A DNA stretch of 56,596 bases, filler included, from Dugesia japonica (GCA_001938525.1; 6 parts of 6 records of this genome joined end to end with filler, not necessarily neighbours in it); one strand, 5' to 3'. Shown: positions 23,635 through 51,120, numbered from the whole stretch's first letter. Program-made: numbers and translations. Notes: a model not told the origin generated them from the letters alone.

Positions 23635-25005
23635 TTAGGTGTGTGAATAAGTTTCCGGATTCAGATTAAAGACGCTACAATTGAAATATGCAATTAAAAT
23701 ACATTAATGATATATATGCTGTTTAAAACTGTCAATAATTAATTAATTCCAGTATGAAAATGCCTTGTTTAAATATTCATAATTTTATAATCAAACATGG
23801 AAATATTCGAAAATTCGCGGAAAAAAGAGCACTTGCGCGAAGTATTTTTAGGCTACTTTTTTCTAACAAAACAGCTGATGAAAGTCATAATTTGTTATTA
23901 CAAACATATAGGAAATATGCCTTGTCAAGAAAGCAGTGTTTTGAATGGTACAATCGCTTCAAGAATGAAGAATATGACATCACTGACAAAGGCCGATCTG
24001 GACGGCCGGAAAAGTTTGATGATGAAGATCTTATAGCTTTACTCCGCGAAGAATCATGCCAAACGCAAGAAAAAATTGCAAAATAATTGAAAGTTAATTG
24101 TTCTGCCGCTGTCAAACGTTTACATGCATTTGGAATGATCCAAAAGCAGGGAACTTTGGTACCATGCAATTAAAAGCCCAGAGACGTTGAGAGACGTTTG
24201 TGTACGTGTGAACAGTTGCTTTAATTGCAAAGACGGAAAAAGCTTTTACATCGCATTATTACAGGCGATGAAAAATGGATTCATTATAGTAATCCAAAAC
24301 GAAAAAGATCATGGAGACAGCCGGACCATGCATCTACATAGACAAGGAAACCAAATATTTATGTTCAAAAGCTCATTTTGTGTATTTGGTGGGATCGTCT
24401 CGGTATCATATATTATGAGCTGCTGCAACCGAATGAAAAAATCACAGGGGATCGGGATAGAGTTCAATTGATGCATGTAAGCTGAGCATTAAAGGATAAA
24501 CGACCATATTATGCCAACAGGAATGATAAAGTCATTTTGCTACATGACAATNNNNNNNNNNNNNNNNNNNNNNNNNNNNNNNNNNNNNNNNNNNNNNNNN
24601 NAATGATAAAGTCATTTTGCTACATGACAATGCCCAGCCGCATGTTTTGCAAACGGTTAAAACATTCTTGGAAACCCTTAGATGGAAAGTTTTACCCCAC
24701 CCGCCGTATTTGCCAGCTATTGCCCATACAGATTACCACCTGTTCCGTTGTATGGCTCATGGCCTGGCTGACCAGCATTTTAAGTCTTACGAGGATACTA
24801 AAATCTGGCTCGAATCTTTGATCGCCTCAAAAAAGTAAGGATTTTTTAAAACACAGAATAGGTACCTTGCCTGAAAAATGGGAAAAAGTATTGAAAAGCG
24901 GTGGAGAATATTTCCAAGAATGAATTTTCATAATAAAGTTTATTTATTTTAGTTATCTTTTAGTTATTTATTCAAAAAAATCCGGAAACTTATTTACACA
25001 CCTGA
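23635..25005 (+). mobile_element. full-length DD34D mariner (mauritiana/Mos1-like), transposase inactivated
   Basis: 27-bp TIRs TTAGGTGTGTGAATAAGTTTCCGGATT (2 mismatches) with TA on both sides; SGRPEKF, IITGDEKWIHY, LHDNAQPH, PHPPY..TDYHLF; several stops. Confidence 0.93.
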
Positions 25006-26599: not shown

Positions 26600-27284
26600 G
26601 ATTCGTGGACTCCATTGCATCATGCATGTCGTCATGGTCGAGTTGGATTCGTCAAATTGTTATTAACCAATCACTGTGACATTTATTCACGCACTAATGT
26701 ATTTTTATTTTAATTATAACGATTAAATATTTACGTAGGATGGATATCAACCGATACATTTGGCATCTGAGANNNNNNNNNNNNNNNNNNTGAAAATATT
26801 GATAGAAAACAAATGTGATATCAATGCATCTGATGAAGTAATTTATTTGTTATTTACTAAATAATTTATGAATAAATAATAATTTAGTCGGGAAATAAAC
26901 CAATACATTTGGCCTGTGAGAAAGATCATATTGATATTGTGAAAATATTGAAAGAAAATAATTGTGATATCAATGCATCTGGTTATGTAATTGATTTGTT
27001 ATTTACCAAATAATTTATGAATAACTAATAATTTAGTGGGGAAATAAACCAATACATTTGGTATGTAAGAATGGTCATATTGATATTGTGAAAATATTGA
27101 TAGAAAACCAATGTGATATCAATGCATCTAATCAAGTAATTTATTTGCTCTTTACCAAATAATTTATGAATAAATAATAATTTAGAGAGGATATCAACCG
27201 ATACATTTGGCCTGTGAGAGAGATCATATTGATATTGTGAAAATATTGATAGAAAACAAATGTGATATCAATGTATGTAATAAA
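26600..27284 (+). CDS. ankyrin-repeat protein, partial; exons 26600-26698, 26739-26837, 26888-26986, 27037-27135, 27186-27284
   Basis: Each 99-nt phase-0 exon encodes one ankyrin repeat (WTPLHHAC..; GNKPIHLAC..HIDIVKILIENKCDINAS); introns 40-50 nt GT-AG; a degenerate sixth unit follows. Confidence 0.88.
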
Positions 27285-29264
27285 GTATGTTATTTGCTCT
27301 TTATAAATAATTTATGAATAAATGATAATTTGGAGTGGGTATAAACCGATAGATATTGGCAGACAGTAGAACATCGAGAAATAATCGATATTATTATATC
27401 TACTGATCCCGTAAATAATTATTTATTGAAATATTTCAACAGATTTCATTCATAATTATCAATAACAATAGTAATTGTATAAATGAGGTACCCAGAAAGA
27501 AATAACAATTTAAATGTTGCTAAAACTCTTTAAACGCTACGTCATTTATCAAAATGTTACAAATCACCAAAAATCCGTAAAGTAATGAAAGAATCCTTCT
27601 AAATGTAACAAAATTTCCAGAAATAACAAACTTTAGTATTTATTAATTATTTTTTTTTAAAGAAAAAGTAATGGTTGTAACGGTAATTGGAAAGAAAAAA
27701 TAAAATTATTTTATTAGAAAATGTCAAGTGTAGAGTTAAAAAATAAAATAAATTTCAATAATGAAAAAGAAAATCAATATATGATAAAATTAATGAATAG
27801 TCTTTATATTTTATTTCTTTATATAGAAAAAATTTCTCTAAATAAACAAAATAAAATGAGATTTCTCTTTACTGGCAAATCTAAAAGTGCAAACAAACTC
27901 AAAATCAAAACAAATTCGAATTCTGATTTCCTTAATCAAAGGTGTTGTACAACTGTTCTTTCTTTCAAAAATCTCACTGATTATATTTTTGTATAAATTA
28001 TTATTTTTATACTTACTCCAGTGGATTTTGAAAACAATTAAAAAACCAAGAAAATTTGTATTTTTCAAATATATNNNNNNNNNNNNNNNNNNNNNNNNNN
28101 NNNNNNNNNNNNNNNNNNNNNNNNNNNNNNNNNNNNNNNGTCTTCCAAAAGTTTTCAAAAAGATTTAAACATAATAGTTAATTAAAAATAAAATAATTTA
28201 TCTAAATTAACATTAAATTTATTAAATCCACATTTTTATAGGATGGAGTAAGTATATATAACTATTGTCATTTTAGCGGTGCAGTGCGCTACTCTAGCGA
28301 GAACAAAGTATTTGACGGTAAAGATCCTTTAGATAATGTATAGCCAGTTTTTAATTTCCGGATGAATGATACCAGGATCGAGTTGATCCGGGGCAAGTGG
28401 TCAATCTTTTATCCATAATAACTTGTCACTATCAATCTTGAGTGGAGGATTGCACCATAAGATCCGTCATGTCTTTACGCATCCAGCGATACATGTATGT
28501 GAGGTTCAAAAAATGTGTTCGGTTGCGTTTTTGTATTTTAAAAATATGTAGATGTGATTTTATTATTCCTCACAATAAGTGATCTTATCTGAGTCCAAAA
28601 TCAGTTAATTTCCGGTTGCGGTAAATTAAATAAGTTTGGAAGGAAACGGTTTTATTTTATTTCAATCTGTGCTTGGTAAGTTCTAAATAGAACTGTAAGA
28701 TTTTAGCTATTATTATAAAATAGTATAAAAACTTAAAAACGAATAAAATAACTCAATAATTTATTTTCAATCACAAAAGTTTAACACAACTTCGTTTTAT
28801 AAAAATGAAAATTTTTTAAGTAAAAATCGTTACACGTTTTACTCAGCGTTTTCCTATAAAGATAAGAGTAACACAAGATACAATGGCCAAAAATAAACAG
28901 ACGTTGTCCTTCATTGTTTTTGGATGAACGTTTTATCAAAAAAATGGATATAATGGGAAAATTTAAATTACTTAGAAGCAAACCGTCCAGATTGTAACAA
29001 TCTGCATTTACTTTTGATTTAAAATTATTATTTTAATTCCTAACTCGATACTGTTGATCGAGGGGTTATATTTTACAAGCTTCGTAACGCTTGAAATATA
29101 ACTCAAAATTTGTGATTTTAAAATAAATAAAATTTACCTCTTGTAATTCAACTCGCAAAATTTTAATTTATTTCTGCTTTATCTGCTAACTTTATTTGTG
29201 TCAATTTGATTATCTGGTTGCAATTATATACATAATTGAACAACCAATCAAATTGTATCTAACA

Positions 29265-29531: not shown

Positions 29532-32500
29532 CTGACATTGACCTTCATTAGCAAAATATTGACAATTTGAAATGAGATCTTTGCATTCAGTTCTTTTTTT
29601 TGCTTGGTGGTTTTTAGCAATCTCAGTTTCAGTAACATTGGCTTCATTTCTTTCATAATTACTGCCACATTTACCACAGGATCCCAAACAAATTTTAAGT
29701 GTAGTTCCAGTACACTTATTCTTTATTAAATTAAATTCTGGATTTTCATCTATAAATTTAATAAAACTACCTCATTAGCCATAGCATCACAATAGGAATC
29801 TGGAGAATAATTTCTGCAAGGAGCATTTGGTTTCACTAATGTTGTATTTGTTGAACATGTTCCACACGATAAAGCACAATTCGATTTCATAAATCCAGGA
29901 TTGATATTACACTGACCATTTTGGGCCCATTCTTCACACAAGTCTGCATTATGCCGGTCTTTGCAAACAAATTCAATGATACTTGGATCTGTATGATTGA
30001 CACATGTATTACAACTTTTTTTACAGTAAACCTTTGTCCACGTATCAAAATAGCAGAATCCATCGAATTTGTTTTTCTTACACTTAACTTCATCTTGGTC
30101 CATGCATTCTTCAAAAACATATTCATTTTTAAATATTTTTGAAAATTATTTAAATAATATTTAAAAAATTTTGAACCAAAAATAGTTAGTTATTTAATTA
30201 TTTTTCTAAATAAATTTAAATTTTTAATTAAAATCGAATTTTAATTAAATTTTTTAATAAAGAAAACATCTTAAAATTTTTTTTTAATTGTATTTTAAGT
30301 AATGCTTATTTGTTGTATGTTTTTATGAATATTTTGAATATTTTTCATAGTATATTTAAAATATTTATGGTAATTTTTTTTATAAATGTGTTTATAAATT
30401 TCAGAAAATTATTATATTATATTTTAATTTTTGAAAGGTATATTAAATAATCAAATAAATAAAAACAAAAATTTCAGATCAATTTTCTAAAAAGAATTGT
30501 GACAATGGTTTGAATTTCCAACATAAAGCTCGTAATTTATAGTGAAATAGTAACTTTAATTAATTAATCACGGCTAACTCCAATATCAGATAAAGTTCAT
30601 ACTGAGGAAAAATTGATTCTGTACACACATGCACAATCCAGTTTAACATAACAACCAATAAAAGTTATTACTTAATAAACGTTCATCAGGGTAAAATTTA
30701 CATTCTAACTATCAATAAAATAATTTTTCCATGCTGAAATTCCATTGCACGCATACTTACTTTCGATTTTTCATTTCCGAGATAAATTTTGGGTTTCAAT
30801 CAATAAAAATCTTTAGTAGTCTTATTTCTTATAAAAAATTGTCAGTAACCGCCATATGAGGTTTTTACTAAATGTTTTATATTTTACTCAATTATATCAT
30901 TTACATTTGATTTTTCGAAATTTTCTTAACACATATTTAACCACAGGTTCCTTTGTTTAATTAATTTTTCTTCATTTGGAAATTGTCTATGATTAATATA
31001 CAATTATTCTGTTTTCAATCTCTTTCTAATTTTATTGCTTTAGCGCGATTATACATTTCATTTTACATAAATTTATTATTTATANNNNNNNNNNNNNNNN
31101 NNNNNNNNNNNNNNNNNNNNNNNNNNNNNNNNNNNNNNNNNNNNNNNNNNNNNNNNNNNGTATTAGCCATTTTACATACATTTTAAATGTATTTCAATAT
31201 AATTTTGTTAGTTTTCTCGTTAATTTGTACTATTTTAACAATCAGGAAATATTAGAAATAGAATTCATTAAGGTTTTAACAATGTGTGCATTATAAAGTC
31301 TCTTTCTAAATCTCTAAATCATGTTTGATTAGTATAAAATTAGTTGAGCCTAAAATATATAATTAATTCTGAAATGTTAATTTATATTTTCACAAAGTTA
31401 TTTATTTTCATTTACATTTTTTTATTTTAATTACATTAATTTATTGTAATATTTTTTAAATAATATATAAAACAATGTTTTAAAGCGATATTAATTTAAA
31501 AAAAGAATTAAAGTGATATAATTAAAAATCAATTTTTATTAGATGTTTATAAAATTTATTAGTTGTTTAAATATNNNNNNNNNNNNNNNNNNNNNNNNNN
31601 NNNNNNNNNNNNNNNNNNNNNNNNNNNNNNNNNNNNNNNNNNNAAAATTTCAAAATAACGAATTACATTTATTTAGATGAATTTACGCCTAAAATAATTA
31701 TGTAAAAGACGGAATATTTGTTTTAATCATTCAAAACTAAAATGTTGTTAAAACTGTTTTTTTGCGTTAGCATATATGAATACAAATATGAATTCTGTTT
31801 ATTATTTAAAACAATGTTATTAACAGAATTTTTTATTAAAACTTTATTCATTGATTAATTGAAATTTTATTTTTTAAACTATTTGCTTTCATATTTCCTT
31901 TCTGCAATTTTTAATTTTCTAACAGTCATTTAAACAAATATTTAATTGAAAACTTGAACCTTTAGAAAAATTTCAAAATAAAAAATTGTTAAAAACTCTT
32001 AACAATATTTTACACTGTTGAAAATGACATCTTTACGAAATTTATTTTACATAAAAATATTTTTGAATTCGTTGTTGTTGTTCTAGATAAAAAATTAATA
32101 TTAAATTTACGATTTATTGTTTAAATTGTGAATGTAGTTTTCAAAGGTCTTTTATGCGAAATGATAGGAACAAAAAATTGAAAAAGAACTTTTAGAGAAA
32201 CATTTCAATATTCCATTTTTTTATTAGAAAATACTAAGACATACTATATGGTGGTGGTGGTCCATTTCCATAATTACCATAGCGAAAACATCGGCCACAT
32301 GTTTTTCTGCATAGTGCACTAGCTGCCACAGGATTGTTGTAGCAAATGTTAGTTTCAGAAGCATTTCGGCAGTATTCAGTATGATTTGCATCGTCAACAC
32401 ATCGACGATTTGCAAACACTAAAAGAAAATTACTATTAATATGAACATTTTACATTATTAAAATATTTTTAAAAAGTTAAAATGAAATTAACAATTAAAA

Positions 32501-35500
32501 CAATTTTAAATTATTCACATTTTTCAACATATGTAATATTTTCTTTTAAAAATCGTGAAAAGAATATTTCATCAAAACTGTATATCTTATTATATAAAAT
32601 AGATTTTATATATATACGAGGATTGTCTGAAAAGCTTATAGTCCGATCCATTTTCAAACATATTTTTAATTTTTTGTCAACAGTTTATTAAAAATTCATT
32701 CTTTATTTAGTATTAATAAATCGATTATTATATTTTTATCATTTAATTAANAGTATTATTTTTTGTTTTAGTAAATGACTTCGGATGAATTAAAAAATTT
32801 TGAAAAAGATGAATGTCGGGCTGTCATAAAATATCTGTTTTTAAAGGACAAAAGAAATTTATGATGACATGAGCGGAGCATTAAAGAAAACATGCCCGTC
32901 ATATGCAACAGTGGAAAATTGGGTATCATCATTTGAGAGAGGCAAAACAAGCATCCAAGATGAGCCAAGGTCCGGACGACCAATTTCTGCAACAACTCAC
33001 GAGAATATTGAAAAAGTACACGAAATGATTCTTGAAAATCGTCGAATTTTAATCAGAATTATTGCTGAGACCTTAAAGCTATGCAAAGAGCGTGTTGGTA
33101 AAATCATTCATGAAGATTTGAATATGAATATGCTTTCTGCAAAATGGATCTCTAAATGCCTGAATTCTGATCAGGAGCAAAGACTAGTGCAGAGTTCAAA
33201 GGTGATTCTTTCACATTAATTAATCAAATTCTAGTCGTTTATGGTTGCATTTGTTTGATCATGAAACCAAGTAACAACAATCCATGGAGGGGAGGCATTC
33301 CGGATCGCCCCGACCCAAAAAATTCCGAAGACAAAAGTCTGCAGGAAAAGTCTTAGCCACTGTTTTCTGGGATTTCAAAGGCATTGTGATGATTGACGTT
33401 TCAGAAAAAGGTTCAACGATAAATTATGAATATTATTCATCTTTATTGGTTAAAGTTAAAGAAAAATTAAAGCAAAAACGACCTGGAAAGTTAAGAAATG
33501 GCATTCAATTTTTGCAGGACAATCCACCTGCACATACCGCTTTACAGACATTGAATACAATTCAAGATATTGGTTTCCAAGTTTTAAAACATTCAGCCTA
33601 TTCTCCTGATTTGGCTCCGTCTGATTATTTTTTGTTTTTATATTTGAAAAAAATGTTGAAAAAAAACCATTTCGAAACAAACAGTGATGTCATCGAAACT
33701 ACGAAGGCATGGTTTAAAGCCCAATCTGCGGACTTTTACTATGAAGGCATAGGTTCATTAGAAAAAAAATTAATAATTTGTTTGTTCAAACAAACTAAAT
33801 AATTTGCAGCTCAGATGAAATTGTCCATACTTTCAATTTAGCTAAAGTTTATTAATAAGTATCTATTAAATAATTATAAAACTTTATCAAAAACTACCGT
33901 AAAATTTTAAAATATAATACACCAAATATTTCAAAATTTTATATTCTTTATTTTTGAAACTATTTCATTTGAGCACAACTTATATATGAAATTTTAAAAT
34001 ATAATAATATATTTTAATCACTTTTATTTCATTATTTTCATTAATTTATTTATTTCTTAAAAACCTTAAAAATTCTAAAATAAACCTGTTTTTTAATTAT
34101 TTATAAATTTATGATTTTATTAAAATAAAGTAATAGCTTCGATCAAATTATATCCTACAACTAAAAATTAAACATAAAAAAAATTTCAATTTAATTAAAA
34201 ATTTTGAAATGAAATTTAAAATAAATATTATAATTAAAATAAACCAATAAAATTTCAATAAAATATAAACAGTTTTTGTAACAATGTTCTAATATCGTTT
34301 AAATCTATCAAAAAGTCATCATATTCCTGAAAACAATAAAACAACATTTTAATTTGATCGAAGTTATTTTAATGAAATCTCAAACTCGATCAATAGTTAA
34401 GTCCAAAAATTATTCTCACAATAATTGTAATAACAAAATTATTAACTTATGTTTAAAAAAGTGTCTTTTAATTATTTGATTAATTCTTTATTAACAATTG
34501 TAAATTGATTTCAAAATTTTAATTCAAAATTCAATATCCATATTTTTTAACGTAATTCAAATTATTTTAATTTAAAGATATAGATATTAATAGATAGATA
34601 TATAATAAATATAATAATAAATTAACTTTCTGGTGTTTGACAAACACAATTTTTATCAATAAATTGTGTTGTTGGGCAATTAACATTTGAACAATGATCT
34701 GAAATAAGAGAAATTTTAAGTTTTATCAATGATACCATTCATACTTCCGCATTTATACAATTCATTTATAGCTTTAATATCCCAGTAACTTAGATCTTTT
34801 TCTCTTATTTCAAATAACGGAGATTTTTCAGTTTTATTCATCTTCATGTATACTGGTAAGCCATTTTTAGAAAAAGCCTTAAATAAAAATGTTATATGAT
34901 AAGAAGTACAAATTAATTTAAAATTATTTAATAACAAATCCTGTACTGAAGTAAAAAAAAATTCCAGTTTTTTCTTTCATTTAAATTTTTAGAAAAAGAT
35001 AATCTACTTTTTTATCATTCGTTTATTTTCTAAAGATTTATTTTATGTGATTAATGCTTATCTGATTTACACACGTAAACTTCCGATACCATTTCTTATG
35101 ATCACTTTAGTCGTCTATGATCGTACTTCATGCGTTCTTCATTAACTCGTATTATCCTTTTATCAGCATTTTAACTGCGTGCGCTCTTGAATTTCATCCA
35201 ATCAAATTACCCGGTTTTTAAAAGTATATAATTTGTGTTTTATAGATTTTTAAGTATGATATTCTTGCTCTGCAAAAAATTCCTCGTTAAATGATGTGTG
35301 ATATTACAGTGCTCAAGGTAAAAATATCAAAAATGATCGTGACAAAATTTTTAATAGAATGCAATAAAACGTTTCATGATGTGAAACAAAAAGTTTAATT
35401 ACCCTTACTTCAAACAAGAAAAGTTAATTTAAACGAAAAAAATCATAAATCTTAGTTAATTTAGACCCTATATGTAATTACGAGTAATTATGGGATGAGT

Positions 35501-37670
35501 ATGTAATTTATAATGCCATCAATCGATTATACAAACAAAAGTACCTGTGCCATAATCATTATGNNNNNNATACAGTTAGTGTTAGGGTGTAGTAATCAAG
35601 AAAATTAAATATTGCCTGGGATTGTGTAATCAAACATACTTATAGTGTAATCTTTCGGTAATTATGTTATCATAATGTTTACGTAATATTTTTACATAGT
35701 AATCAAAAACCTAAACTCACTGCATATTTTTACTTTGAATTAACTTTAATTTTCAAGAATCGTTGAAATTTTTTGTGTTATCAATTGATCATGTATAATT
35801 TAAGATTTTGTTACTAATTGATGTTAATAAATTAATTATTAATCAAGAATAAATCTGTTCAAGTTTTTCGTCACGTCACATTCATACTCAAATAATGCAT
35901 CCGCGCGAGGGTATATTAATTAAAAATTCAATTATAAACTAAAGTTATTAGGTGAATATATGAATGCTTAATACATCCATATAAAAATTACAATTTTAGT
36001 TCAAAAGAAGATTATAAGATTGATTTTTTTACAAATGATTTGAATTTAACTATGTGCAAATTTTTAGTTTTCGTTAAAAAGAAAATGATTTATTGATTTT
36101 TAGTATTTTCATGAAATTTAAACTTTATATTAAAAGGCGAATCCATTAAAAGTTAAAAGTATCACCGATTGTCCCTCGCTGATCTACATCGTCAGAATTT
36201 AGTAAGATTTATTTTCTAGCCTTTATGTAAAACAGGAGTCTTTAACACGACGCCCGTAGACCGCATGCATCGTGTTTAAATGCGGCCTATAATCCTTCAT
36301 TAGAACTAACAAAAATAGATATACATTTTACCAATTAATTAGCTTTACTTTCGTGTAAAAGTCTTATCACGTGCTTCAAGTTTTAAATAGTTTGTTTTTA
36401 CCATTTCAGACTGACACCATAATCAAGTTAGTTTCTTATTAAGACACCTTCAACCTAATTTTATTGATGACTTCACTATCAATATGCAAACAAAGACGTG
36501 CGTATAACTAAGTCATTGTACTGTTAGTTTTACAATTAAATAATTATAATACTAGGTTGAGTCAAAGGTTCCCGGACACTTTTTATTTTGTCTATTTTAA
36601 TTTTAAAAAAGCAGCGTTATTTAAAAAAAATTGTATTATCTATTTTTATATAGTAAGTCAATTTTATAGATTTAATTTCAAAAAAATATTTATCATAGAA
36701 GCTCACAAAATGGCGGACGAAAAAATCATAATTCGGGGTTTCCTGTGTCATTATTGGAAACAGAGTCTAAGCGTNAGAGCAACAGCCATGAAAATATATA
36801 AAATTGAAGGTCCTGGGATAGTCTCAAAACCCACCTTAGGAGAATGGTTTCGTAGATTTAATGAAGGCGATACCAGTCTATAAGACAAATCACGTTCTGG
36901 AAGGCAATTGTTCCTGATAAATGAAGCTTTGTTGCAAGGTTTTCAACAAAGTCCAGACACCAGCACTCGCATACTGGCTACTCAACTTGGAACATCTAAA
37001 TCAACCATTGTTCGGCACCTTCACGAATTTGGTTTTTCAAATAAGAAACCCAAATTTGTTTGCCATGAACTTGCTGATCAACAAGCACAAAGGAGAGAAG
37101 AAATTTGCAAGAAATTGTTGGATAATCCTAAAGATAACAGGTTCTGGAGACGAATCATAAATAAATTAATTAATAAATAAAATGCAATGATTCGCTATTT
37201 GAATTTGTTTGAAAAAACAATGTTGTCTTTCATTTATAATAAATTTTAAAAGAAATCTTCTTGTCTCAAATTCATCTAACAATGCTTATAATGTTAATAT
37301 TTAATTTAATAATTTTAATTATAATGTTTTTTTCTTTAATATAACACTTACATATGGTGAATACATCATTATCGATTGAAAATCAAAAGGTGTATTAAAT
37401 AATTTATAATGTGCAGACTCAATTTGGAAACCGATTTTAGCATCATCTTGAATATTTTCAATAAAATATCGTATAAATTGATTTCTGTCGGGTCGCATCA
37501 TTTCATGTAGTAATCCTATTGTGTGACCTAATTCGTGTATAACTAAACCATACTAAATATTTTGTTTATTTTAATTTATTTCTTTACAAAGCATTCATAC
37601 TTGACGGCATGCCTTTGAAAGAGTGAGAGATTGTTGTCCGGTTTCTTGCATTCCAATTTCAGAGAAGCAT
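29532..37670 (-). CDS. astacin (M12A) zinc metalloprotease with Cys-rich linker and at least 5 ShK domains, partial; exons 37670-37601, 37552-37352, 34877-34745, 34698-34627, 32418-32245, 30108-29771, 29720-29532
   Basis: CFSEIG; HELGHTIGLLHEMMRPDR (HExxHxxGxxHExxRxDR); Met-turn SIMMY; DIKAINELYKC; six-Cys ShK units ending CRKTCGRC, CKKSCNTC, CALSCGTC, CLGSCGKC, plus the start of a fifth; splice phases consistent. Confidence 0.92.
32615..33802 (+). mobile_element. DD34D mariner (irritans/Himar1-like) in astacin intron, decayed
   Basis: TACGAGG.TTGT 5' TIR-like start; DEPRSGRP, KSAGKVLATVFWD, LQDNPPAH, YSPDLAPSDYFLF; 3' TIR not found. Confidence 0.88.
36552..37158 (+). mobile_element. 5' half of a mariner in astacin intron
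   Basis: TA-CTAGGTTG TIR-like start; WFRRFNEGDTSL*DKSRSGR, FVCHEL, ends at RFWRRII just before the catalytic domain. Confidence 0.82.
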
Positions 37671-38027: not shown

Positions 38028-38881
38028 CGTGGTAAGACTAAAAAGTCCTTAGACTTTACCAGAAATAATGAAGTCAATAAATATATATTCATAGGTCTCA
38101 TTTCTCGACATAACCACGTTTACATTGAAGCACTTTTTCCAGTGGTCGACCATTCCATCGAAGCACCTTTCAAAGAAATTTTGATCTTTCTGGATGAGGA
38201 ATTTCGTCACGTTGTCTTTTATATCATTCATTGAAACAAACTTATGTCCTTGTATATGTTTCTTCATATGATTGAACAACCAGAAATCACTTGGTGCAAG
38301 ATCTGATCTGTATGGAGGATGATCGAGCTGCACAAATCCAGCTTTTTGTAATGTTCCTTGTGTTTTCTTGGATGTGTGAATAGGAACTTTATTATGGAAC
38401 AAATAAAGATTCTTGCTGCGTGACTTGAATCGCATGCTTCGGGTTTCAAGTATGAGGTTACTGTAGTAAAACAATTTTATGAATTCTTCAGTAAAATCTA
38501 GCTTCACGATGCCATTTTTATTCAAATCAACAGGTCTTCCAGTTTTGGTTGCATCGAAAACCCTTATTCAACCAAATGAAAATTCTTAGATCCAGTTTTA
38601 AATGGTCGCCTAAGATGGGGCTTCTTCACCATATACCTTTTGAAGCTGATTAATAATTCCCTTTTTGCCAGTTCCCTTGATAAGTAAAAATCTGATTACA
38701 CTGTGAAATTCAACATTATCGAACCTTTGTTGTTTAATTATTCTAATCTAGTGCAAACAAAAATTAGCATATTAAAAAAATCGTAAATTTCATACCTATA
38801 TGATTATTATTTTAAATGTAAAATTTTATTTAAATATCTTCAATTTTTCGGATAGTCTAAGGACATTTTAGCCTTACCACG
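38028..38881 (-). mobile_element. internally deleted mariner with both TIRs (854 bp)
   Basis: 28-bp TIRs CGTGGTAAGACTAAAAAGTCCTTAGACT (2 mismatches) with TA flanks; the HTH region (TKTGRP) joins directly to GIVKLDF..HPPYRSDLAPSDFWLF. Confidence 0.9.
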
Positions 38882-39654: not shown

Positions 39655-39754
39655 NNNNNNNNNNNNNNNNNNNNNNNNNNNNNNNNNNNNNNNNNNNNTT
39701 AATTAATTAANNNNNNNNNNNNNNNNNNNNNNNNNNNNNNNNNNNNNNNNNNNN
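39655..39754. other. artificial contig-join linker
   Basis: N44-TTAATTAATTAA-N44. Confidence 0.95.
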
Positions 39755-40126: not shown

Positions 40127-40234
40127 TTTGTTTACTAAAAATAAAATATATAGCAACAATGAATCAATAATTAATCAAACAATAACTATAAACAATATCT
40201 ATTCAATTTAATGCTCCACAAGAACTAATATCAG

Positions 40235-40640
40235 TTAAACATGCTCGTCCATATCCACTGGAATGTTCAATGGAAAATTCTCAACGAAAGACCACAAATC
40301 CGTTTCGTCGGAATGCTCAATGGCGCCCTTGGAGAGAATGTAGTCTAAGAGTTCCCTTCGGTGAGTATTACATCTTTCCTTACAGATCAATTTTAAAGTT
40401 TTTCGCAAGAGATCAGGCATGTAAGATCTAGGTCCTATTTAATATAACTAATAAATTAAAGAAGAAATTGTTCGGAAAAGTAAATTAACCGGTTCGTCCT
40501 ATTGAATCTAGTTCTGTGGGTCCCTACTGGAGAAAACGTTAGAAACTAATCCTCCTGTACTTACCAGAATCTTAGTGAGGAAAGTGTGACGCTGATCTTC
40601 TTTACTCGTAACCTCATTAGTATTAGTGGTGCCATTATGA
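40235..40640 (-). CDS. small three-exon hypothetical gene (exons ~40640-40565, 40523-40490, 40434-40235)
   Basis: 41-nt GTAAGT..TAG and 55-nt GT..TAG introns keep frame: ..EDQRHTFLTKIL|GPTELDSIGRTG|PRSYMPDLLRKTLK..DEHV*; TATAAA near 40650; start codon unresolved. Confidence 0.45.
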
Positions 40641-42134
40641 CAGCAACCTTTATAGTATAAATACTAATCCTCATAATGAGTACCAGAAGTATATTCTTAA
40701 CAGAGATACTGATATCAGGTAGATTAGCAGTACAAAAAAGAATAAAACCTATTAGCTATTTCGCTAAGTCAGTTGTGATCGAAGGGGTTGATAACCGCGA
40801 CCATGAAAAGGTTACTAATATTAAATGTAATATGATAATTAGTAATATAGTTAATCAATAATGATAATAGTTTTGTCTTTAAAAATGAAAATTAAAATTA
40901 TGGCTAGGATTAACAATATGTTTTTACACAGTTGCTAATATTGACAGAGTTGATGGCGATGACGTTAACGATACCAGTCAGCTATTCACTTTTACTGCCC
41001 AAATAAATACTCAATGGTCCTGACCCTGAAAACCCTCCAATTAATTGATCATGTCCGAAGGGGTCACCATTGATATTAGTAATTAATCAAGACATTTTTA
41101 CACCAATAAATAATCATATCAAGACTATTAGAATTATTCCTTCGCCTGATAATATTTACAATAACAGTGCTCATTAGATTAGGGGTAACAAAAACGGGAT
41201 TTTATACCACCAGGGAATATCAAAATGGTTACACATCCATTAAAAAATGATATTGTTATCCTTCGTAAACAAATAACGTTTACTCATACCAGTGTCAGCA
41301 TTCGTAAAGCTAATAATTAATAATCTTCGTCGCAATAACACTAGTCACTCTAGTGATAACCACAACTATAATTCGGTTAACGACGAGAATAGAAGTGAGA
41401 ATAAGCGAATAAGAATAATAAATTAATAATTGTTTTAATACGAATCTTAATATCAGTGTTGGCATTATTTATGACAAAAAAAGATTAATAATAATAAAAT
41501 AATAATAATTATAGCCGTCATATTAATGATAACAATACTCCTTTTAATGTTATGGATAAATCCTAATGTTAGATCAAACGGAGTCTCAGCAACTTGGTTT
41601 GTTAATTTAAAAACGGCCTTGGTTGAAATTAGCAATGATAGATGAAATATAACTACTAGTATTGTCATCATAACTTTTCTGCCTATTCAACTTACGGAGN
41701 TTGACTTAGTCACAATTTCTATACACACATAATCATATGACAACAACATGATGTATTTTTCTGACTTAGTTTGCTCATCAATTTACTGGCATGATGAGAC
41801 ATAGTCATTAGTTTACTGCTTGCTAGATTAATTTATAACATGGCTATGTAGTTGAAAAAACGTGACACAATATACAGTGCATAGGTATTGGATTTGTCTA
41901 CCACGGCATAGTCTGCGATTTATTTATTCATCAATCCCGTTCTCAATGATCTTTCAGTACTATTGGAATTTATTTCTCTACAAACGTCAATTTAATGATC
42001 TCTAGCTACAATAATGAATCATTCAGGAGGATTTCTCAAAGTTAATGAATTTAATCATAAAAATTGGAATGGCTGAGCGCGGATGTTGTAAGTTGGTGTA
42101 TTAATAAAAGATTTAATCAATTTCTCTTTTTTAT

Positions 42135-44042
42135 TTAATAATGTGAGGAAATAAAATGACCTAGATCATTACTCTCGCTATCAGTATAGTATGGTATGAA
42201 TTCACGATCTTCTCTCACTTAAATCAATTTACGATCTTCTAGTTCATCACTTGTTTCGATATCGGACTAATATTCAGTTTCACTTTCGAATTCTGTCTGG
42301 CTTCCATTTTGCAGCATCGTCTGTTCTGGGTTTTCGTCATTCTCAGATGCGTCTATATCTGTCTTTTCACCTCTTGGGTTTCGTTATGTCATATCCTCAA
42401 TCATTCTTTGTTGTTCTTCACTATCGTTATGTGGTCTGAGCTCTTCTGGTAACTCCTCCTTGTCCTACTCAGTATCTGTATTATTACTCATACTTGATGA
42501 ACTATCTGCGCTTTCAGATTTTACTTCTCTATCCTCCTCCATATCTGAATCTTGACCAGAGTCTAATATCCATATCACACTATCTGGTTTCTCTTTTTCT
42601 CTAATCATAACTTCTTTCAATATTGGTTCATTATTCGCTTTGCATTGCGTAACCGTATTAACAACAGGGTATATAGAATCTTGCCATGGTTTTTGATTGG
42701 TTATTTGTCTGTACATAATTTTTTTGAATGTTATCCGTTTGGCTGTCGATTCTTGTGCTTTCTCTCTCACTGTTTTCAGCATATCTCTGATTACTCTATC
42801 TTGTCTTATGGGTTTGAATACTGCTTCCATAAGGTTGACAAATTTTAAGTTCTTTATATTTTGGGTATACTTCTTACGCCACTTGTCTTCCGCGAGATCT
42901 CGAATACCGATAACATGTCTTTGTTCAATGTGCAAACTTGTCAGTTTAGTTCCCAATTCATATCCGACTAATATCTTTGCGTAAAGTAGCTGTCTCGTTC
43001 TTAGAATAATAGGATACGCATCTTTACACTTCTTTATCTTCTCATGGGTATACCCTGTACTTGGCGTATAAAAATGCTTTATTTTTTACGTGGGCATAAA
43101 GTTTCGTCCATGATGATTTCTCCTTTATTATTCAATATAGTTAGTTTTACTACCTGCAAATTGAAGTAGGAATCCTTAACTGTTATCATACCCACATATA
43201 CTATTAATTGTTCAATATCGGCTTCTGTTAATATTCCATACTTTAAGAATGATATATGATTAATTAGATTTATATAATTGACTTCGAAATGTCACTTTAC
43301 AGCAGCATATGTAGGAAAAAGTATAGGAATACGATCGTGATAAATTAATTCTACACAAAGAACGGCTGGAATATACTGTATTGCAATTAAATTTTATTTA
43401 CTCCTGGATCTATTTTTCCTCTAATATTAATGTATTGTTCTCAAGCATAGTCATATCTCGTTTCTGGTATGAGAATCTGATAGGGGTTTTTGTAACATGC
43501 AATCTGATTTCTTTAAGTACTCTTTTTCCATTTATTAATGCTTCTTGTGGATATCGATCTATTTCTATGTAGCCAATTAATTGTTGTAGTGAGTATCTCT
43601 GAGCTTTCTGGAATCTTATCAAAATAATATCTTTATCAAAAGTGTTGTTTTTAATACATTAGGGATTGTATTTAAGCCATTAAAAATTTCTATTCTAGGT
43701 TCCCTATCTTTATCCTTAAACACAAAACTTTGTATATGGTTATAAAAATGCGTGATACTTTTTTTTAACTATGGATGAGGATGAAGGAATGTTTGTTGAT
43801 TGTGCTGATTTGTTATTTTTGTTATTCTGTCTTGTTATGTTATTCACTGCTTGCTTGCACTGCTGTGTTGACTGTTGACTGTTTATAATTTGTTGTGACT
43901 GCATTTTGCTAGTTTATTGTTGACTGCTTGTAATTTGTTGTTGTGACTGCATTTTGTGATATGTAGATGATTGGTGATCTTTAACTGGTTTGTTATATAG
44001 TGTTAATTGTTGATTGATCTGGATTATTTTAGATATATTTTG
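42135..44042 (-). pseudogene. long accessory ORF relic (~630 codons): Gln/Ser-rich N-terminus, globular middle, acidic C-terminus
   Basis: Reads through scattered stops and frameshifts; includes listed ORFs 43410-43622 and 42465-42956; in-frame D/E-rich tail continues 110 codons to TAA at 42135; candidate TTTCAG acceptor at 44043. Confidence 0.55.
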
Positions 44043-44206
44043 CTGAAACGTTTCTTTAAAATAATAGAATAATTAACTATTGATTTTAAGGACTGGCTAG
44101 CCCTAAATACTATCACATGTATTAGTAACTTATTATATAAATAAATATATATATATAAATAATAATATAAACCCTTAATATTTTTTGAAAGTTTGACATA
44201 GGGTGT

Positions 44207-44740
44207 TCAGACCAATGTCCATTGGACATAGTTTGGAATTTGTGGGGCATTGCGACGCCAATACCGCTGCCTCTTCCACCTATATCGCTTATGCATTTGG
44301 ATTAATGTAACTATGAACGCAAGGAGGAAGAGTAATGCAATTATTCCTAATATTAAAAAGTGGTGATATAATATTTTTGTGACGAATGGTTTTACTGTTG
44401 TTGTAATCCATAATTGTAGGATTTTCTGTCGTAATTGTTAGTAATCTAATTTTGTGTTATTATTCAACTTCTCTTTGAATCTTTTTAAATTTTCATATAT
44501 ATTCCTACTTATCATTGTTGTTATTTTGATATTCCTATCCGATAGATACTTTATTGTTGTGCTATGCTTTTGTACTGCTGTATTTGTTGTTATTACAGAT
44601 AGACTTTTTTGATTAGCTAAAGTAATAGTCTTGTTTTTTGTTACTGGTGTTACGCGATTACTGAGTAGTGTACTTTAATGAATCATTATTCTAGTTTGTG
44701 GTTTGAATACACTCAAAGTATTTTTTTTAATTTGAGTAGT
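44207..44740 (-). pseudogene. Thr-rich membrane-anchored protein relic downstream of integrase
   Basis: ..VTPVTKNKTIT..ITTNT..STTIK.., then FLILGIIALLFLLAFIVTLI (TM) and HKRYRWKRQRYWRR (basic tail), stop at 44207; two internal stops. Confidence 0.6.
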
Positions 44741-47560
44741 TACTTCCGCCTATTTTGTAAAATAGTCTTTGAATACTAATATGTGCTTGTTACCCTTTAT
44801 GGTTGTTGGTAATTTGGATAGGAAATCGATTGCACATGTTTCCATTGGTAAGCTGGGTATTGGCATTGGTTGCAATGAAACTTTGGTTTTTGTTCCCGTG
44901 TTTTCCTTGTTACACAAATTTTACATGCCTGACACCATTTCTTTACATCCTCTTTAATATTATCCCAATAATATTTTTGTAGTAATCTTGATGTGGTTTT
45001 TCTACTTGATAAATACGCTCCATCATGATATTGTAGCAGTAACAATTTTTTTAAGGAATCTAGTACAACCATCAGATTTTTCCCTAAGTTATTGTACATA
45101 AGCAAATTCTTATACATTTTATACCTAGTATTCTTTTCTTGAATTATCATCTTTTTAATGTCTTGTATTTTTATATCTTTACTTTGTTCTTCCAGAAACG
45201 TTTTCGCATTTGTTCCAGTCATAACGATTGACATAATTTCTAATATATTTATTTCTGGAATTCTTGATAATGCATCAGCATTTTTATTTGCCTTACCTGG
45301 CTTGTATATAATACGTATGTTCATATCTTGAATTTTCATTGCCCATTTCAGTATCCTACTGGATGCGTTTTTATTTTTCCATAAACCCTCTAATGGTTTA
45401 TGATCTGTTCAGATAATTATTTCTGTTCCATATAAAAAGGGTCTAAATTGTTTCAACGCAAATATAATAGCTAAACATTTTTTTTCGATTGTTAAATATC
45501 TTGTCTCTGCTCGCTTTAGCATTCTACTAGCATATGCAATGACACAATCTTTATTCTTTTCGTCTTCCTGACCAAGTACCGCTCCCATGGCATATCCGCT
45601 TGCATCTGTCATTACTATGAATTGCTTTGTAAAGTCAGGATATCTTAATATTGGAGCTGTTAATAATGGTTGTTTTAATGTGTTGAAAGCTTCCTGCTGC
45701 TTTGGACCCCATTTTTGTCTGAGGTTTCTTTGCTTTTTCATCTAATTGCTCTACAATCATGACGTTTTTACTTTCGCCTTTAGTCTTCATACCCTTTGTT
45801 AATTCTACCAATGGTGCTGATATTTTTGCGAAATCTTGTATGAATCTCCGATAATATCAGACTAAACCATTAAATCCTTGTAATTGTTGTACGCCTTTTG
45901 GCACTGGAAAATCTTGGACCACTTTCACCTTCTCTGGATTTGGCTCTAATCCCCTAGATGACACAATATATCCGAGAAATAATACACTTTCATCTGCCCA
46001 TTTACATTTTGTGGGTTTTAACTTAATATTCGCTTTTCTGATTCTGGACAGTACATTTTCTATGTTAATTAAACCTTGTTCAAATGTTTCAGATGCTATG
46101 AGTATATCATCCATATATACAANNNNNNNNNNNNNNNNNNNNNNNNNNNNNNNNNNNNNNNNNNNNNNNNNNNNNNNNNNNNNNNNNNNNNNNNNNNNNN
46201 NNNNNNNNNNNNNNNNNNNNNNNNNNNNNNNNNNNNNNNNNNNNNNNNNNNNNNNNNNTTCTTGTACTGGGATTACATTATAACCTTTATTAGCATCCAA
46301 ACATGCAAAATATTTTGCATTCATTAACTTGTTGAACTGTTCGTGTATTTTTGGAAATGGGTGTGTATCCTTTTTGCAACCTCATTGAGTTTTCTGTAAT
46401 CAATACACATTCGAATTTCACCATCTTTTTTTTTGACTGGTACTATTGGCGATGCCCATTGGGAAAAACTATCCCGTATGATTCCATTTGCTTTTTGTTC
46501 CGCTACCTGTCTTTTTATCTCTGGTCTTAATGCATATGGTGCAACATATGGTCGCTGTTTTATCGGCCTTGCATCACCTGTATCAATTATATGTTTTATA
46601 ATATTGGTTCCTCCGATATCAAATTCATGTTTAGCGAATGCATCTTCATATTTATCTAATAATTTCTGTAGTTGTTGGCTTTGACTCATTGTAAGATCTT
46701 TATTCGTTATCTTTGTTTTCTCGTAATACTTTGTTTGTTTCTGTTTTATTAGCTCTAGTTCATTTGACTTTCCAGTTTGGTTCTGTTGATCCAACATAAT
46801 TTCAAATAGATGCTGACTACTTAACTGACATGTTCTGTTTTTTACTTCTTTAGACCTTTTCTTAGATGAAGATTGTTTGTTTAAACTTGTTTTCGTCATT
46901 TGCTCCTCAATTATAATCTCGCATATTTCATATTCATTACCATTATCAAATAATCTCCCCAATTTTGTTCCTTTATGCAAAGTTACATAGTAATTATTAT
47001 AATTTGCTATTCTCATTGGTATTATATCTTTATTTGGCTTAACACATCCTGGAATTATTGATAAATTTTGTTTTGCTGTTAATTTATTATTTGGTTCGAA
47101 AATAAATGAATTGCTGCTCTGAACTTCAGTATTTATAGGTATTATATTCTCACTGCAACGTTCTATTATTATTAAGTCTGTTGCCAATACGTCATTGTAT
47201 TTTGCTTGTATTAGTATCGGAGTTACCATTTTTAATGTGCTGCTATGTAAATCGATATCATAACCTTTAAGTCGTGTAAGAAAATCCATGCCCAAAATAC
47301 AATTTTGTGTTCCGTTTTCCATTACTCTAAATGGATAGGTNNNNNNNNNNNNNNNNNNNNNNNNNNNNNNNNNNNNNNNNNNNNNNNNNNNNNNNNNNNN
47401 NNNNNNNNNNNNNNNNNNNNNNNNNNNNNNNNNNNNNNNNNNNNNNNNNNNNNNNNNNNNNNNNNNNNNNNNNNNNNNNNNNNNNNNNNNNNNNNNNNNN
47501 NNNNNNNNNNNNNNNNNNNTACTAATTCCATTTATTATGATACCTGTTGTTGGTCTATTA
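44741..47560 (-). pseudogene. pol: Ty3/Gypsy pol: protease, RT, RNase H, integrase (core truncated)
   Basis: IIING..(gap)..ILGMDFL; WASPIVPVKKKDGEIRMCIDYRKLN; YMDD; TDASGYAMGAVL; TDHKPL; NADALSR; YHD..C..C Zn finger; AIDF..DYFTK*AEV then deletion; several frameshifts. Confidence 0.95.
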
Positions 47561-47777
47561 TTGTCTGAATCTACGACTGATATTGAGTAATTTCTTTGAT
47601 ATCTATATTGTTTTGAATCATCTATTTTTATATGTTTTAACTCGATGTTATTTTGTTCATATGGTTTATATTCTGTATCTGATGGTTTATCATTATTTAA
47701 TTTATTTAATTCCTGCTCATCATCTATGTTTACTGTATATATGCCTCGATGTTTTTCTAAGTTTTTTATTTTTTCAC

Positions 47778-48164
47778 TATGGTTTTGTACAATGATGTGT
47801 TTTGCAATAAATGGACAGAAACATGCACCTAGTTTCCATGTGCAATCGAAAACTGCATGTAGTTGTCTAAAAGAAAGTATTTGATGACCCGCTAACTTTA
47901 AAAATGTTAAGACATACCCCCCAAATAAAATAAATGAAAATATATTGCCAAACCATTGCATTCCCCCCAAAAATCTATCTACAAAATTGCCCTTTTAAAA
48001 TGATCAGCGTGCAATAGTGATTCAAAATTCACATCGTCTTCATTACTCCATCTCACTACTTTATCAACCATTACTGATATTATTTTTTCACTTTGTATTG
48101 GAAAAAGCATATGTTTTCTTACTTTCTCAATATCGTTAATTGTATAAATACCACGATTTTCCAT
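47778..48164 (-). CDS. C-terminus of a chuvirus-like (class III, gB-type) envelope glycoprotein, in frame with pol
   Basis: GIYTINDIEKVRKHMLFP..FESLL..WFGNIFSFILFGGYVLTFLKL..LHAVFDCTWKLGACF parallels the recalled chuviral G tail GIY...DL..LR.HIMFP..FGS..G...I.R..K....LH.VYG.S..L.GA.W; one 1-nt frameshift in a T run near 47983. Confidence 0.72.
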
Positions 48165-48265: not shown

Positions 48266-49449
48266 GGGTTTATCATGAAAATTTAGGATTTATAGTGAAA
48301 TCCTGGTTTCAATTTGAAAAATATATGTTTTTATAATTAAATATAAGAGCCTTAAACCAGATACAATTAATAAAGCGATTGTTGTAAGTAGTCCCATTAC
48401 ATCATAATTTATCATTATTTAGAACAACATATTGACAAAAAAGTAATACCTATTCAATTGTTTCTTATTCAAATCAGGTTTCACTTCATTCTTATCAAGT
48501 TTCTTTGCTTTAAGTTAAAGAAATGAATAACAGTGAGATGGACCAAGTAAGAAAGAATAAGTGTGAGAGGCCGAGAATAAGAAGGTAAGAAATAGCAAGA
48601 TAGTATTATCTAATTTTCTTGAAGTCATGAAATTTAATCTGGAATTTAAATGAACTTTTTTTGATTCGATGAAAACTTACACAATCTTTTTTATCATCAC
48701 TGAAAAATGACAGGAAATTTCAAAAAATGGTTTTAATTAGCTAAAACATTTCTAAAGCTGGTTAAAATTTGCACAATTCTTTTAATCATCGTTGAAAAAT
48801 TACACAAACTTTTATATTTTCAAAATTCCTATGTAAAAGAATGGGAAAATATTTCAAATATTTACTAGAACATTTTTGAAATCATTGAAAAATGACAGGA
48901 ACTTTCGGCAATCTCTTTAATCACCGTTGAAAATTTACAGGAACTTTTATTCACTGTTGAAAGTTTCCATAATCTTTTCTGTTATATGGATTATAATACT
49001 GTCAAGATTCTTGCCTTAATAATTCATTCATATAATTACTTAGCAAATCATCTTGATTTTAAATGTTAATATTCTCGGGGAGATTATCTAAACTTACATG
49101 ATGCTCGCTATCAACAAGTATTAACCTATAAAATAGTCACTATCATTAAGTCCTAACATACACAATATTCGTTACCAACAAGTATTATCATATAAAATAC
49201 TCGCTATCATCAAGTATTAACATACAGGTTTAATCTGTTCATTGCTTATTTCATATAGTCAACTCTATAATTCACACTGAATACATACTTTAGTACAATT
49301 AGCCAGTTAATTATCCACATAATTTAATCTTAATATAGAAAATTCTTTTGAAAATAGATTTCTAATGTGTTAATTCACCTATTAATCATCAACTTGGTGA
49401 TCTTTAACCGTGTTATTCGTACTTACCGTAAAACTTTCCCATTACATAG

Positions 49450-49830: not shown

Positions 49831-50039
49831 TAGCAGCTTGGTAAAAAAACTTTAAAATCTGAGATATAGAACATATTTTATTTTCACAAATTTGGGAATC
49901 CCCGGATTCTCAAAAAAAATTCATCTAAAAAATTTAAAAATTTTTATATTATTTAAAAAACATGAACGGTTTGCCTGTATTTCTTTAATTTAAACAAATT
50001 CAACTCTTCATATGATTTTCCTTAAAATTTAACACAAAC

Positions 50040-51120
50040 TAATCAACCCGACAAAATTATAATTCATATTCACCTAAACTGACCAATTTGCGTAAATAAT
50101 TGCCCAAACCGTCCAAAACNNNNNNNNNNNNNNNNNNNNNNNNNNNNNNNNNNNNNNNNNNNNNNNNNNTTTAGCAGCTTGGTAAAAAAACTTTAAAATC
50201 TGAGATATAGAACATATTTTATTTTCACAAATTTGGGAATCCCGGATTCTCAAAAAAAATTCATCTAAAAAATTTAAAATTTTTTATATTATTTAAAAAA
50301 CATGAACGGTTTGCCTGTATTTCTTTAATTTAAACAAATTCAACTTTTCATATGATTTTCCTTAAAATTTAACACAAACTAATCCACCCGACAAAATTAT
50401 AATTCATATTCACCTAAACTGACCAATTTGCGTAAATAATTGCCCAAACCGTCCAAAACTAACCAAAACAGACTAATCTGAGAAAAATGCAACCAATATT
50501 ACTTAAACCGAGTAAATAATTGACCAAATTATTCAAAACCAACCCAAATTAACCATTCCTAATGAAATATTCGACCGAATTCATCTAAAAATGATCCTTG
50601 TGAGCAAATAATTAACCAAGTCTGCCAATATAGAGTAAATAATTCACCAAATTGTCCAAAACTGACCCATATTAACCATTTCTGAAGAAATAATTTACCG
50701 AATTCACCTAAAAATTACCCAAGTTGACCAACCTTGACGAAAATTTGATCGAATTCACTTAAAACCAACTAAATTTGCCCAGATTCGATTTCATCGAGGT
50801 TTTAACTAATTTCACCTAAACCACCCAGAAATTACCAATCCCGAGGAAATATTGGACCAAATTCATACGAACCAATCAAAAATCGACCTTCTTTGACCTC
50901 ACCGAGTAAATTCCTAACCAAATCGTTCAAAAATCACCTAAAACCGACAAGGTTGGCTTAAACTGACCAATCCCGAGGAAAGAATTGACCGATTCGTCCA
51001 AAATTGAACCAAATTCACCTGAACCAACTAAAAATGGACCAAAACGTCCAAAACGTATCCAAATTGACTAATATCGAAGAAATATTCGACCAAGTTTGTC
51101 AATACAGAGTAAATAATTCG
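50040..51120. repeat. degenerate strand-biased minisatellite-like array
   Basis: Recurring ACCAAATT, AATTCACCTAAA and GAGTAAATAATT motifs; A/C-rich top strand. Confidence 0.65.

Follow-up and report, generated by a model that had tools for sequence, protein, structure and literature searches.

A decayed GAG-ENV-POL retroelement of Dugesia japonica that probably retains the end of a second membrane protein behind its integrase

We analysed a 56,596-nt stretch of Dugesia japonica DNA (GCA_001938525.1; hereafter the window). It is an AT-rich eukaryotic scaffold interrupted by N gaps and carrying fragments of DNA transposons. Judged from its sequence, the minus strand holds the decayed remains of a Ty3/gypsy-type retroelement of GAG-ENV-POL order, in which a gB-type fusogen (Env) lies upstream of pol. 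The stretch that survives directly behind the integrase is probably the C-terminal part of a second single-pass membrane protein, which would most likely be the end of one long polyprotein. That the family encodes a real membrane protein at this place is very likely, and that the window's own family makes it within the polyprotein is quite likely. The window copy itself is dead: a deletion took most of the integrase and the front part of the protein, and stops accumulated.

The initial annotation had described one frame running from the integrase through a Thr-rich segment and a 20-residue helix to a basic tail. This frame was seen on the minus strand, with three internal stops (44752-50, 44677-75 and 44440-38). 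Read from 44908, it passes from the integrase start, which ends DYFTK*AEV at 44770-44741, into the Thr-rich stretch, an amphipathic helix (44512-44411 for the helix proper), the 20-residue hydrophobic helix, the basic tail and a stop. The Thr content (16 among 76 residues) has a P of 7e-4 given the local base composition. In addition, the 177 codons of the frame beyond the junction contain 2 stops where 13.8 would be expected (P 7e-5), which is near the level of the decayed pol (1 in 276). Across all six frames, the window contains the pattern of a helix followed by a basic patch a single time, and 200 order-3 Markov simulations of the 8,076-nt element produced it in 0 cases; its thresholds were chosen with the sequence already known, so the result speaks to rarity and not to function. 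The piece has no Pfam match.

The element appears to belong with the GAG-ENV-POL gB-type elements by three sequence features: the Env type, an in-frame Env upstream of pol, and the order protease, reverse transcriptase, RNase H, integrase (PR-RT-RH-IN), which is present in the window with the protease core N-masked. The 57-aa piece of the Env end matched PF24664 at E 3e-4, below the curated cut-off. It aligned to the Env of a related protein, P0016, at 43% over 56 aa (E 2e-10) and to that of a related locus, L001, at 29-34%; the Env regions of both relatives match PF24664 at E 1e-83. A single 556-aa stop-to-stop frame (46324-47994) leads from the Env anchor region into the reverse transcriptase. 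The visible element starts at the gap at 48148 and extends down to at least 42198; assembly gaps lie at 48148 and 39655-39754. No long terminal repeat (LTR) pair was found in the window or in L001. The features are collected in Table 1.

Table 1. Features of the retroelement in the window (positions counted from the first letter of the window)
Feature	Position	Strand	Detail
gB/chuvirus-type fusogen (Env), C-terminal end	47746..48164	-	frameshift-split near 47990; remainder beyond assembly gap
Linker, protease region (partly N-masked), reverse transcriptase start	46324..47745	-	in frame with Env end; match to L001 2349-2470, 52%
Remaining reverse transcriptase (other frame, N gap)	45743..46381	-	RVT_1 E 7e-13
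RNase H and integrase zinc finger	44914..45741	-	RT_RNaseH E 1e-36, Integrase_H2C2 E 8e-15
Integrase core, first ~55 residues, up to junction	44744..44914	-	56% over 54 aa to L001 2962-3015; 45% to P0016 2235-2289
Deletion junction, estimated 1.3-1.7 kb lost	44743..44744	.	other-copy contigs break there from both sides
Thr-rich stalk	44513..44740	-	Thr 21%, Ser+Thr 30%, Pro 3%
Amphipathic helix and Thr-rich juxtamembrane stretch	44360..44512	-	top hydrophobic moment of the frame, 0.80
Single transmembrane helix	44300..44359	-	best 19-residue Kyte-Doolittle mean 3.23
Basic cytoplasmic tail and stop (44209-44207)	44207..44299	-	7 K/R in 15 residues
Decayed DEDD-type exonuclease-like gene, frameshifted	42846..43288	-	31% over 83 aa to L001 exonuclease open reading frame, E 3e-4
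Continuation of exonuclease frame, acidic low-complexity tail	42198..42845	-	translation; family-level depth 128-969

The intact layout was found in relatives. With the region from the Env end to the integrase as query, 120 of 1,732 proteins were listed. Among these 120, P0016 (3,108 aa) was the sole match to the Env end and the best match for the RNase H-integrase and integrase-start pieces; a hydrophobic helix after the integrase was present in two of them (P0016 and P0050). P0016 consists of a gB Env (E 1.5e-83), proteases, reverse transcriptase, RNase H and integrase, followed by a hydrophobic signal-like segment at 2753, a 4-Cys ectodomain, RKKR, a stalk (Thr 19%), a helix at 2986 and a basic tail with 5 K/R in 15 residues. 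When P0016 served as query in a scan, one locus, L001, was obtained from 32 stretches; it matches P0016 residues 30-2671, a range that does not include the post-integrase membrane region. L001 has a single open reading frame (ORF) of 3,703 aa that encodes Gag with CCHC knuckles, gB Env, proteases, reverse transcriptase, RNase H and integrase. Behind the integrase it continues with a signal-like segment at 3305, a 212-residue ectodomain, a stalk (Thr 24%), a helix at 3591 and 8 K/R in 15 residues. L001 and the window match in the same order, that is, Env end, pol (36-56%), integrase start, helix plus tail, and exonuclease. Compared with the whole window, the post-integrase part of L001 gave one match only, at E 0.018, which covers helix and tail with 34% identity over 44 aa. 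A tree was built from the window and the top 40 of 75 matches covering more than 220 aa (41 rows, without named reference elements); the window, L001 and P0016 form one clade (99/94) in it, with the composition of the window flagged as unlike the rest. P0050/P0144 was also considered as a relative and was dropped as an ordinary GAG-POL-ENV element with a single gB glycoprotein after the integrase.

Thus, both intact relatives with this layout (2/2) carry a gB fusogen and a second membrane protein in frame with Pol. The initial annotation had proposed a type I membrane protein besides a fusogen, joined to the integrase by a deletion. The coexistence of the two proteins is supported by the gB-type Env end upstream and the two relatives that carry both. 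The notion of an accidentally joined foreign gene most likely gives way to that of the end of the Pol polyprotein, and in the choice it had posed between a separate ORF and a Pol extension the two intact relatives favour the extension. Both relatives also have extra aspartic-protease-like domains in two stretches after Env (about 1970-2230 in L001), and a further Asp_protease_2 stretch lies between the integrase and the post-integrase membrane protein in P0016 (about 2570-2660, its third) and at 1178-1271 in P0050. The job of these extra domains may be to cut Pol free of membrane anchors.

An alternative is that the window's family encodes the protein in a separate accessory ORF, with its own start or a spliced message, and that the deletion joined it in frame by chance. 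The window frame contains three Met codons, and those 159 and 102 residues ahead of the stop could serve such an ORF. Rotifer LTR elements have separate ORF3s with transmembrane helices (available text of PMC5408684), and the accessory ORFs of planarian Burro elements may be separate or polyprotein subdomains (available text of PMC6431247). However, neither Met precedes a signal-like hydrophobic stretch before the anchor, and helix and pol have similar RNA depths (9.0 and 1.7-12, respectively); no sign of an enriched short message was seen in the one run, of which a quarter was read. Because P0016 and L001 have the module in frame with Pol, we lowered this reading and consider it unlikely.

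The deletion itself was examined by mapping contigs from three runs of the same organism, together with the raw reads of an RNA run (4 of the 24 listed runs in all), on 41701-46122 at 80% likeness; individual pieces were read from 24 out of 14,666, and variants from 40 rows out of 857. One contig (X2 record 14) matches 44743-44979 and leaves 177 further letters unaligned on the downstream side. Two contigs from two studies (X2 record 13 and X4 record 22) align to 44417-44744 with 87% identity and leave 9 letters beyond unaligned. Both sides therefore break within two bases of the claimed junction, which supports the deletion. The spacing from the integrase motif to the helix is 575 residues in L001 and about 699 in P0016 against 131 in the window, and the estimate that 1.3-1.7 kb was lost follows from this difference. 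The claimed deletion of the integrase core is thus supported by the two-sided breaks and by the longer spacing in the relatives. The lost part comprises the integrase core and C-terminus and, as we infer, also the second signal and the ectodomain. No piece bridging the junction was found among the 24 of 14,666 pieces.

Other copies share the surviving part to different degrees. The summed contig depth over the helix and tail (bin 44217-44364) was 30,580, 38,240 and 35,338 in the three DNA-type runs (3/3), within the range of the pol bins at 44809-46122 (about 7,000-59,500); it fell to 1,231-1,755 over the pre-membrane helix and to 79-122 over the stalk. The anchor and tail are common to many copies and the stalk is not, with the reservation, which counts against our reading, that summed contig depth is no copy number. 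In another copy the stalk region is 87% identical over 328 nt with 42-43 differences and 0 gaps; if indels accumulated at assumed neutral rates, a match free of gaps would have a chance of 0.005-0.12. Behind 44395, each of the three runs has 4-5 contigs with an in-frame insertion of 3 nt; the two other indels listed nearby (44077 and 43760) are single-base and lie outside the frame. The stop at 44209-44207 is kept in loose ends while the preceding codons differ (by eye; 2 contigs in X1 and 3 in X4), and the third internal stop is read open in 5 X4 contigs (agreement 0.69). Of the RNA reads, 148 mapped and 68% continued into unlike sequence. None reached 95% identity; the reads therefore come from other copies, whose helix and tail appear in RNA. 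The RNA depth over the helix given above is in the pol-read direction, against 1.5 in the other, and the uncalibrated strand of this run is a further point against us.

These observations bear on the possibility that a host gene fragment (e.g. a cadherin-like anchor) or a conserved cis-acting RNA or DNA element mimics a membrane protein. The depth is concentrated on a 150-nt bin, and a search of the 178-aa piece against 1.84 billion proteins returned four matches as its sole result, all fish protocadherin gene models. We rejected these matches: each sums 3-9 repeated helix-plus-basic stretches, and the animals are wrong for a host fragment. Against this possibility, many copies share the region with indels in frame and the stop position kept, position and layout are the same in two relatives, and the RNA folding of the region is ordinary (z -1.7, 13/200 shuffles). 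We regard a host fragment or a cis-acting element as improbable.

Several results weigh against a second membrane protein that closes the polyprotein. The intact relatives number two, at 39-45% identity in RNase H-integrase; the intact copies found are relatives and none is from the window's own family, and an in-frame join by chance has a probability of 1/3. The window tail has 30 aa against 86 and 98 in the relatives, where the pre-membrane helix is without a counterpart. The window protein compared with that of P0016 is at shuffle level (149/300); compared with that of L001 it scores 54 and beats 1000 shuffles, although an unrelated protocadherin helix scores 83. The ectodomains of L001 and P0016 are also at shuffle level against each other (881 and 349 of 1000). 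The link among the three proteins is position and anatomy, not sequence, and either a single gene that diverges rapidly or repeated filling of one slot may account for the module. Among the structure predictions, the model of the P0016 C-terminus is unusable (predicted local distance difference test, pLDDT, 33.4) and the single-sequence model of the L001 ectodomain is of low confidence (mean pLDDT 42.5, with blocks of 51-67 over residues 11-70).

The L001 ectodomain is a tandem pair (0/1000 shuffles) without a Pfam match, and its model suggests two beta-rich domains. In this low-confidence model, domain 1 has 7 strands, and the best match of the model is a fibronectin FN3 domain (Z 8.7, root mean square deviation 2.4 A, 81 residues). 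Many FN3 or immunoglobulin (Ig) rows follow at Z 6-7.7, and the rows at 7.7-7.0 include other sandwiches; Foldseek gave FN3 pairs at TM 0.23-0.30. An FN3/Ig-like ectodomain is a lead only, and for this relative only. A viral fold library gave 0 matches at E 0.001, and the ESM Atlas returned nothing usable for the P0016 ectodomain or the exonuclease frame. The 178-aa piece had no homolog among 418 longer and 42 similar-length candidates. The pol of the window had no match in contigs from metagenomes (101 stretches) or viruses (7), and alignment A1 had none in viral contigs (55) or prokaryote genome contigs (268).

We also considered whether the protein is a small cell-cell fusogen like the sORF2/FAST-like proteins of insect LTR elements. 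According to the available text of the report on them (10.1101/2025.03.14.642691), these share one helix, a polybasic patch and amphipathic segments with the window protein, and 7 of the 22 lepidopteran cases have the sORF2 gene downstream of pol. They are, however, small and mostly myristoylated, have a short ectodomain and occur in env-less elements, and the element described here already has a fusogen. The published screen asks for at least 3 K/R in the 15 residues after a single helix, and we counted 7, 8 and 5 in the window, L001 and P0016. It further asks for an ectodomain of 10-50 aa; at least 127 residues lie ahead of the helix in the window frame, and the corresponding lengths in L001 and P0016 are 266 and 214. 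Finally, it asks for an N-terminal MGxxxS/T in an ORF of 60-210 aa. None of the Met codons in the window frame is followed by Gly; the relatives' proteins are polyprotein ends, and the window copy has lost the true start of its family's protein. A sORF2/FAST-like fusogen is very unlikely and the least probable of the explanations weighed here.

For an intact element, a mechanism can be proposed from L001 and P0016, in which topology, cleavage, glycosylation and function are all inferred. Each of the two proteins has four hydrophobic segments, which fit an alternating topology, and by the positive-inside rule the basic tail would lie on the cytosolic side. The ribosome would make Gag in the cytosol. 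A first internal signal would send the gB ectodomain into the endoplasmic reticulum (ER), and the gB anchor would return the chain to the cytosol, so that protease, reverse transcriptase, RNase H and integrase would be made on the cytosolic side. A second internal signal would then direct the stalk, which is Thr-rich and probably O-glycosylated, into the lumen together with a small beta-sandwich ectodomain, and the last helix would anchor the protein and leave its basic tail in the cytosol. Cleavage by signal peptidase and by the protease of the element would free the individual parts, and the second protein would thus be made in step with gB. On the particle or the cell surface it could be the fusogen's partner and bind the target cell at the end of its stalk.

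As to function, we rank an attachment or trigger partner of gB first, tentatively and at somewhat below even chances. Two-component entry systems are known in viruses: herpesvirus gB, which needs partner proteins, acts with gD and gH-gL, and pneumovirus F acts with the mucin-like G, a type II, Pro-rich protein. The likeness would be an analogy in how such systems work (a fusogen and a stalked binder), with no homology found, and the window protein would be type I and is Pro-poor. The initial annotation had also proposed two surface proteins, one of them mucin-like. Two surface proteins are structurally supported, and the data suggest that particles may display both; 'mucin-like' would apply to the stalk only (Ser+Thr 30%, 33% and 26% in the window, L001 and P0016; Pro only 3-5% in the window and P0016), and the lost part probably included a folded ectodomain. 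The fuller proposal is a possibility that we consider less likely than not. It envisages two-component entry in which a single polyprotein spans the ER membrane four times and supplies both components, a gB-type fusogen before Pol and an unrelated, fast-evolving FN3/Ig-like receptor binder on a Thr-rich stalk behind the integrase, in a swappable slot that sets the target cells.

Alternatively, the protein could act on the host cell or in assembly, as a surface decoy, an adhesion molecule, a block to re-infection or a tether of Pol to the budding site. The alternative is one of function alone and does not conflict with the anatomy. The ectodomain and stalk are unrecognisable between lineages, and the depth of 79-122 over the stalk against 30,000+ over the helix marks the anchor and tail as the constrained part. 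Elements with a gB-type Env and one glycoprotein exist (P0050/P0144), so a partner is not obligatory. On the other hand, fast divergence is expected of receptor-binding proteins as well, and a folded tandem ectodomain on a stalk, if the model holds, would be needless for a mere tether. We consider a role in the host cell or in assembly a real but slightly lesser possibility and keep the partner of gB as the working proposal.

Behind the membrane protein lies the exonuclease-like gene of Table 1. Its first catalytic motif is not recognisable, an upstream piece of it matches at 25% over 56 aa (E 0.03), and it has no direct Pfam or PDB match; the L001 exonuclease ORF itself matches RNase_T at E 0.0011, below the cut-off. 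In L001, the region behind the polyprotein (11375-13852) holds a 222-aa ORF without a Pfam match, the DEDD-type exonuclease ORF and an 88-aa ORF. The window keeps the exonuclease-like gene (42198-43830), which may therefore be a lineage trait of these elements. Short imperfect Gln/Ser-rich repeats lie between the membrane ORF and the exonuclease gene (43790-44000, minus strand; family depth 83-565). Copy number is low at 41701-42144 (depth 20-53), and the element end was not found. The partly open plus-strand hydrophobic frames at 40160-42140 have no Pfam match and are probably outside the element.

The remainder of the window holds other features. Its N-run, TTAATTAATTAA, N-run gaps (10148, 20122, 29265, 39655, 48166 and others) are assembly linkers, and the contig order across them may be arbitrary. 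An ISXO2/Merlin-like transposase remnant (11930-13064, E 8e-9) is flanked by 45-nt inverted repeats that are 91% complementary. Mariner-like transposase remnants lie at 23739-24821, 32845-33802, 36512-36883 and 38049-38567, two of them with HTH_48 and Transposase_1 matches and the rest recognised by eye. At 19301-19892, another gypsy-type element is represented by a C-terminal piece of its integrase with a tandem duplication of 176 nt. Host exons are represented by an ShK-domain gene (29750-30145, minus strand, E 2.5e-10) and a HEAT-repeat exon (16833-17159, plus strand), which we take to be CAND1-like. Tandem arrays with 149-nt and 32-nt units, and a 231-nt duplicate of 97% identity that flanks an N gap and is probably an assembly overlap, are among 26710-27354, 49091-49250 and 49889-50459.

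The GAG-ENV-POL order has been published for nematodes, bryozoans and flatworms (PMC13524379, in the part available) and for planarian Burro elements (PMC6431247, likewise in part). The GAG-ENV-POL errantiviruses with HSV/gB-type Env (Chary and Hayashi, PMC13524379) are like the window in having a gB/chuvirus-type Env upstream of pol and a high copy number, and the Env of P0016 and L001 resemble six Smed_errantivirus Env rows in the available supplement, by eye and without alignment. Those elements are treated as three ORFs, and the available part of that paper mentions no second membrane protein or exonuclease after the integrase. The Burro/GYPSM1 giant gypsy elements, as far as the available text of PMC6431247 goes, are like L001 in one polyprotein, Gag, CCHC knuckles, an env in frame between gag and pol, and accessory ORFs; the window shows only the env-pol half of this order. 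The L001 ORF is shorter (3,703 aa against about 4,900-5,100 in Burro), no BIR, BCL2, MATH or ankyrin domain is among its 18 Pfam matches (a test made on the relative), and the available Burro text names no membrane protein after the integrase. A weak ubiquitin-like match between Gag and Env of L001 (residues 848-903, E 0.018) is reminiscent of the Ubi/SUMO domain that Burro elements are reported to carry (same text); judged by eye, it recurs near residue 590.

Two further systems are partly similar, again on the available portions of the papers. Rotifer Juno and Vesta have post-pol ORF3s with transmembrane helices or a DEDD-type exonuclease, as here; those ORF3s are separate and stand in place of env, whereas here the membrane protein and the exonuclease occur alongside a gB fusogen (PMC5408684). 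The Atlas belpaovirus polyprotein also yields two surface glycoproteins, Gn and Gc, but these are one captured phlebovirus-type cassette in a Bel/Pao element, and here two unrelated proteins flank Pol (PMC9094657). We found no description of a second membrane protein behind the integrase in gB-type elements in the literature searched, mostly by titles and abstracts. Its novelty is provisional.

Envelopes of the gB type are known to be widespread in invertebrate gypsy elements, and according to PMC13524379 transmission is elusive for most elements. A second membrane protein made in step with gB would be a concrete candidate for a receptor-binding or triggering partner and would offer a testable handle on movement between cells. 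The three-ORF annotation of these elements would miss this C-terminal module.

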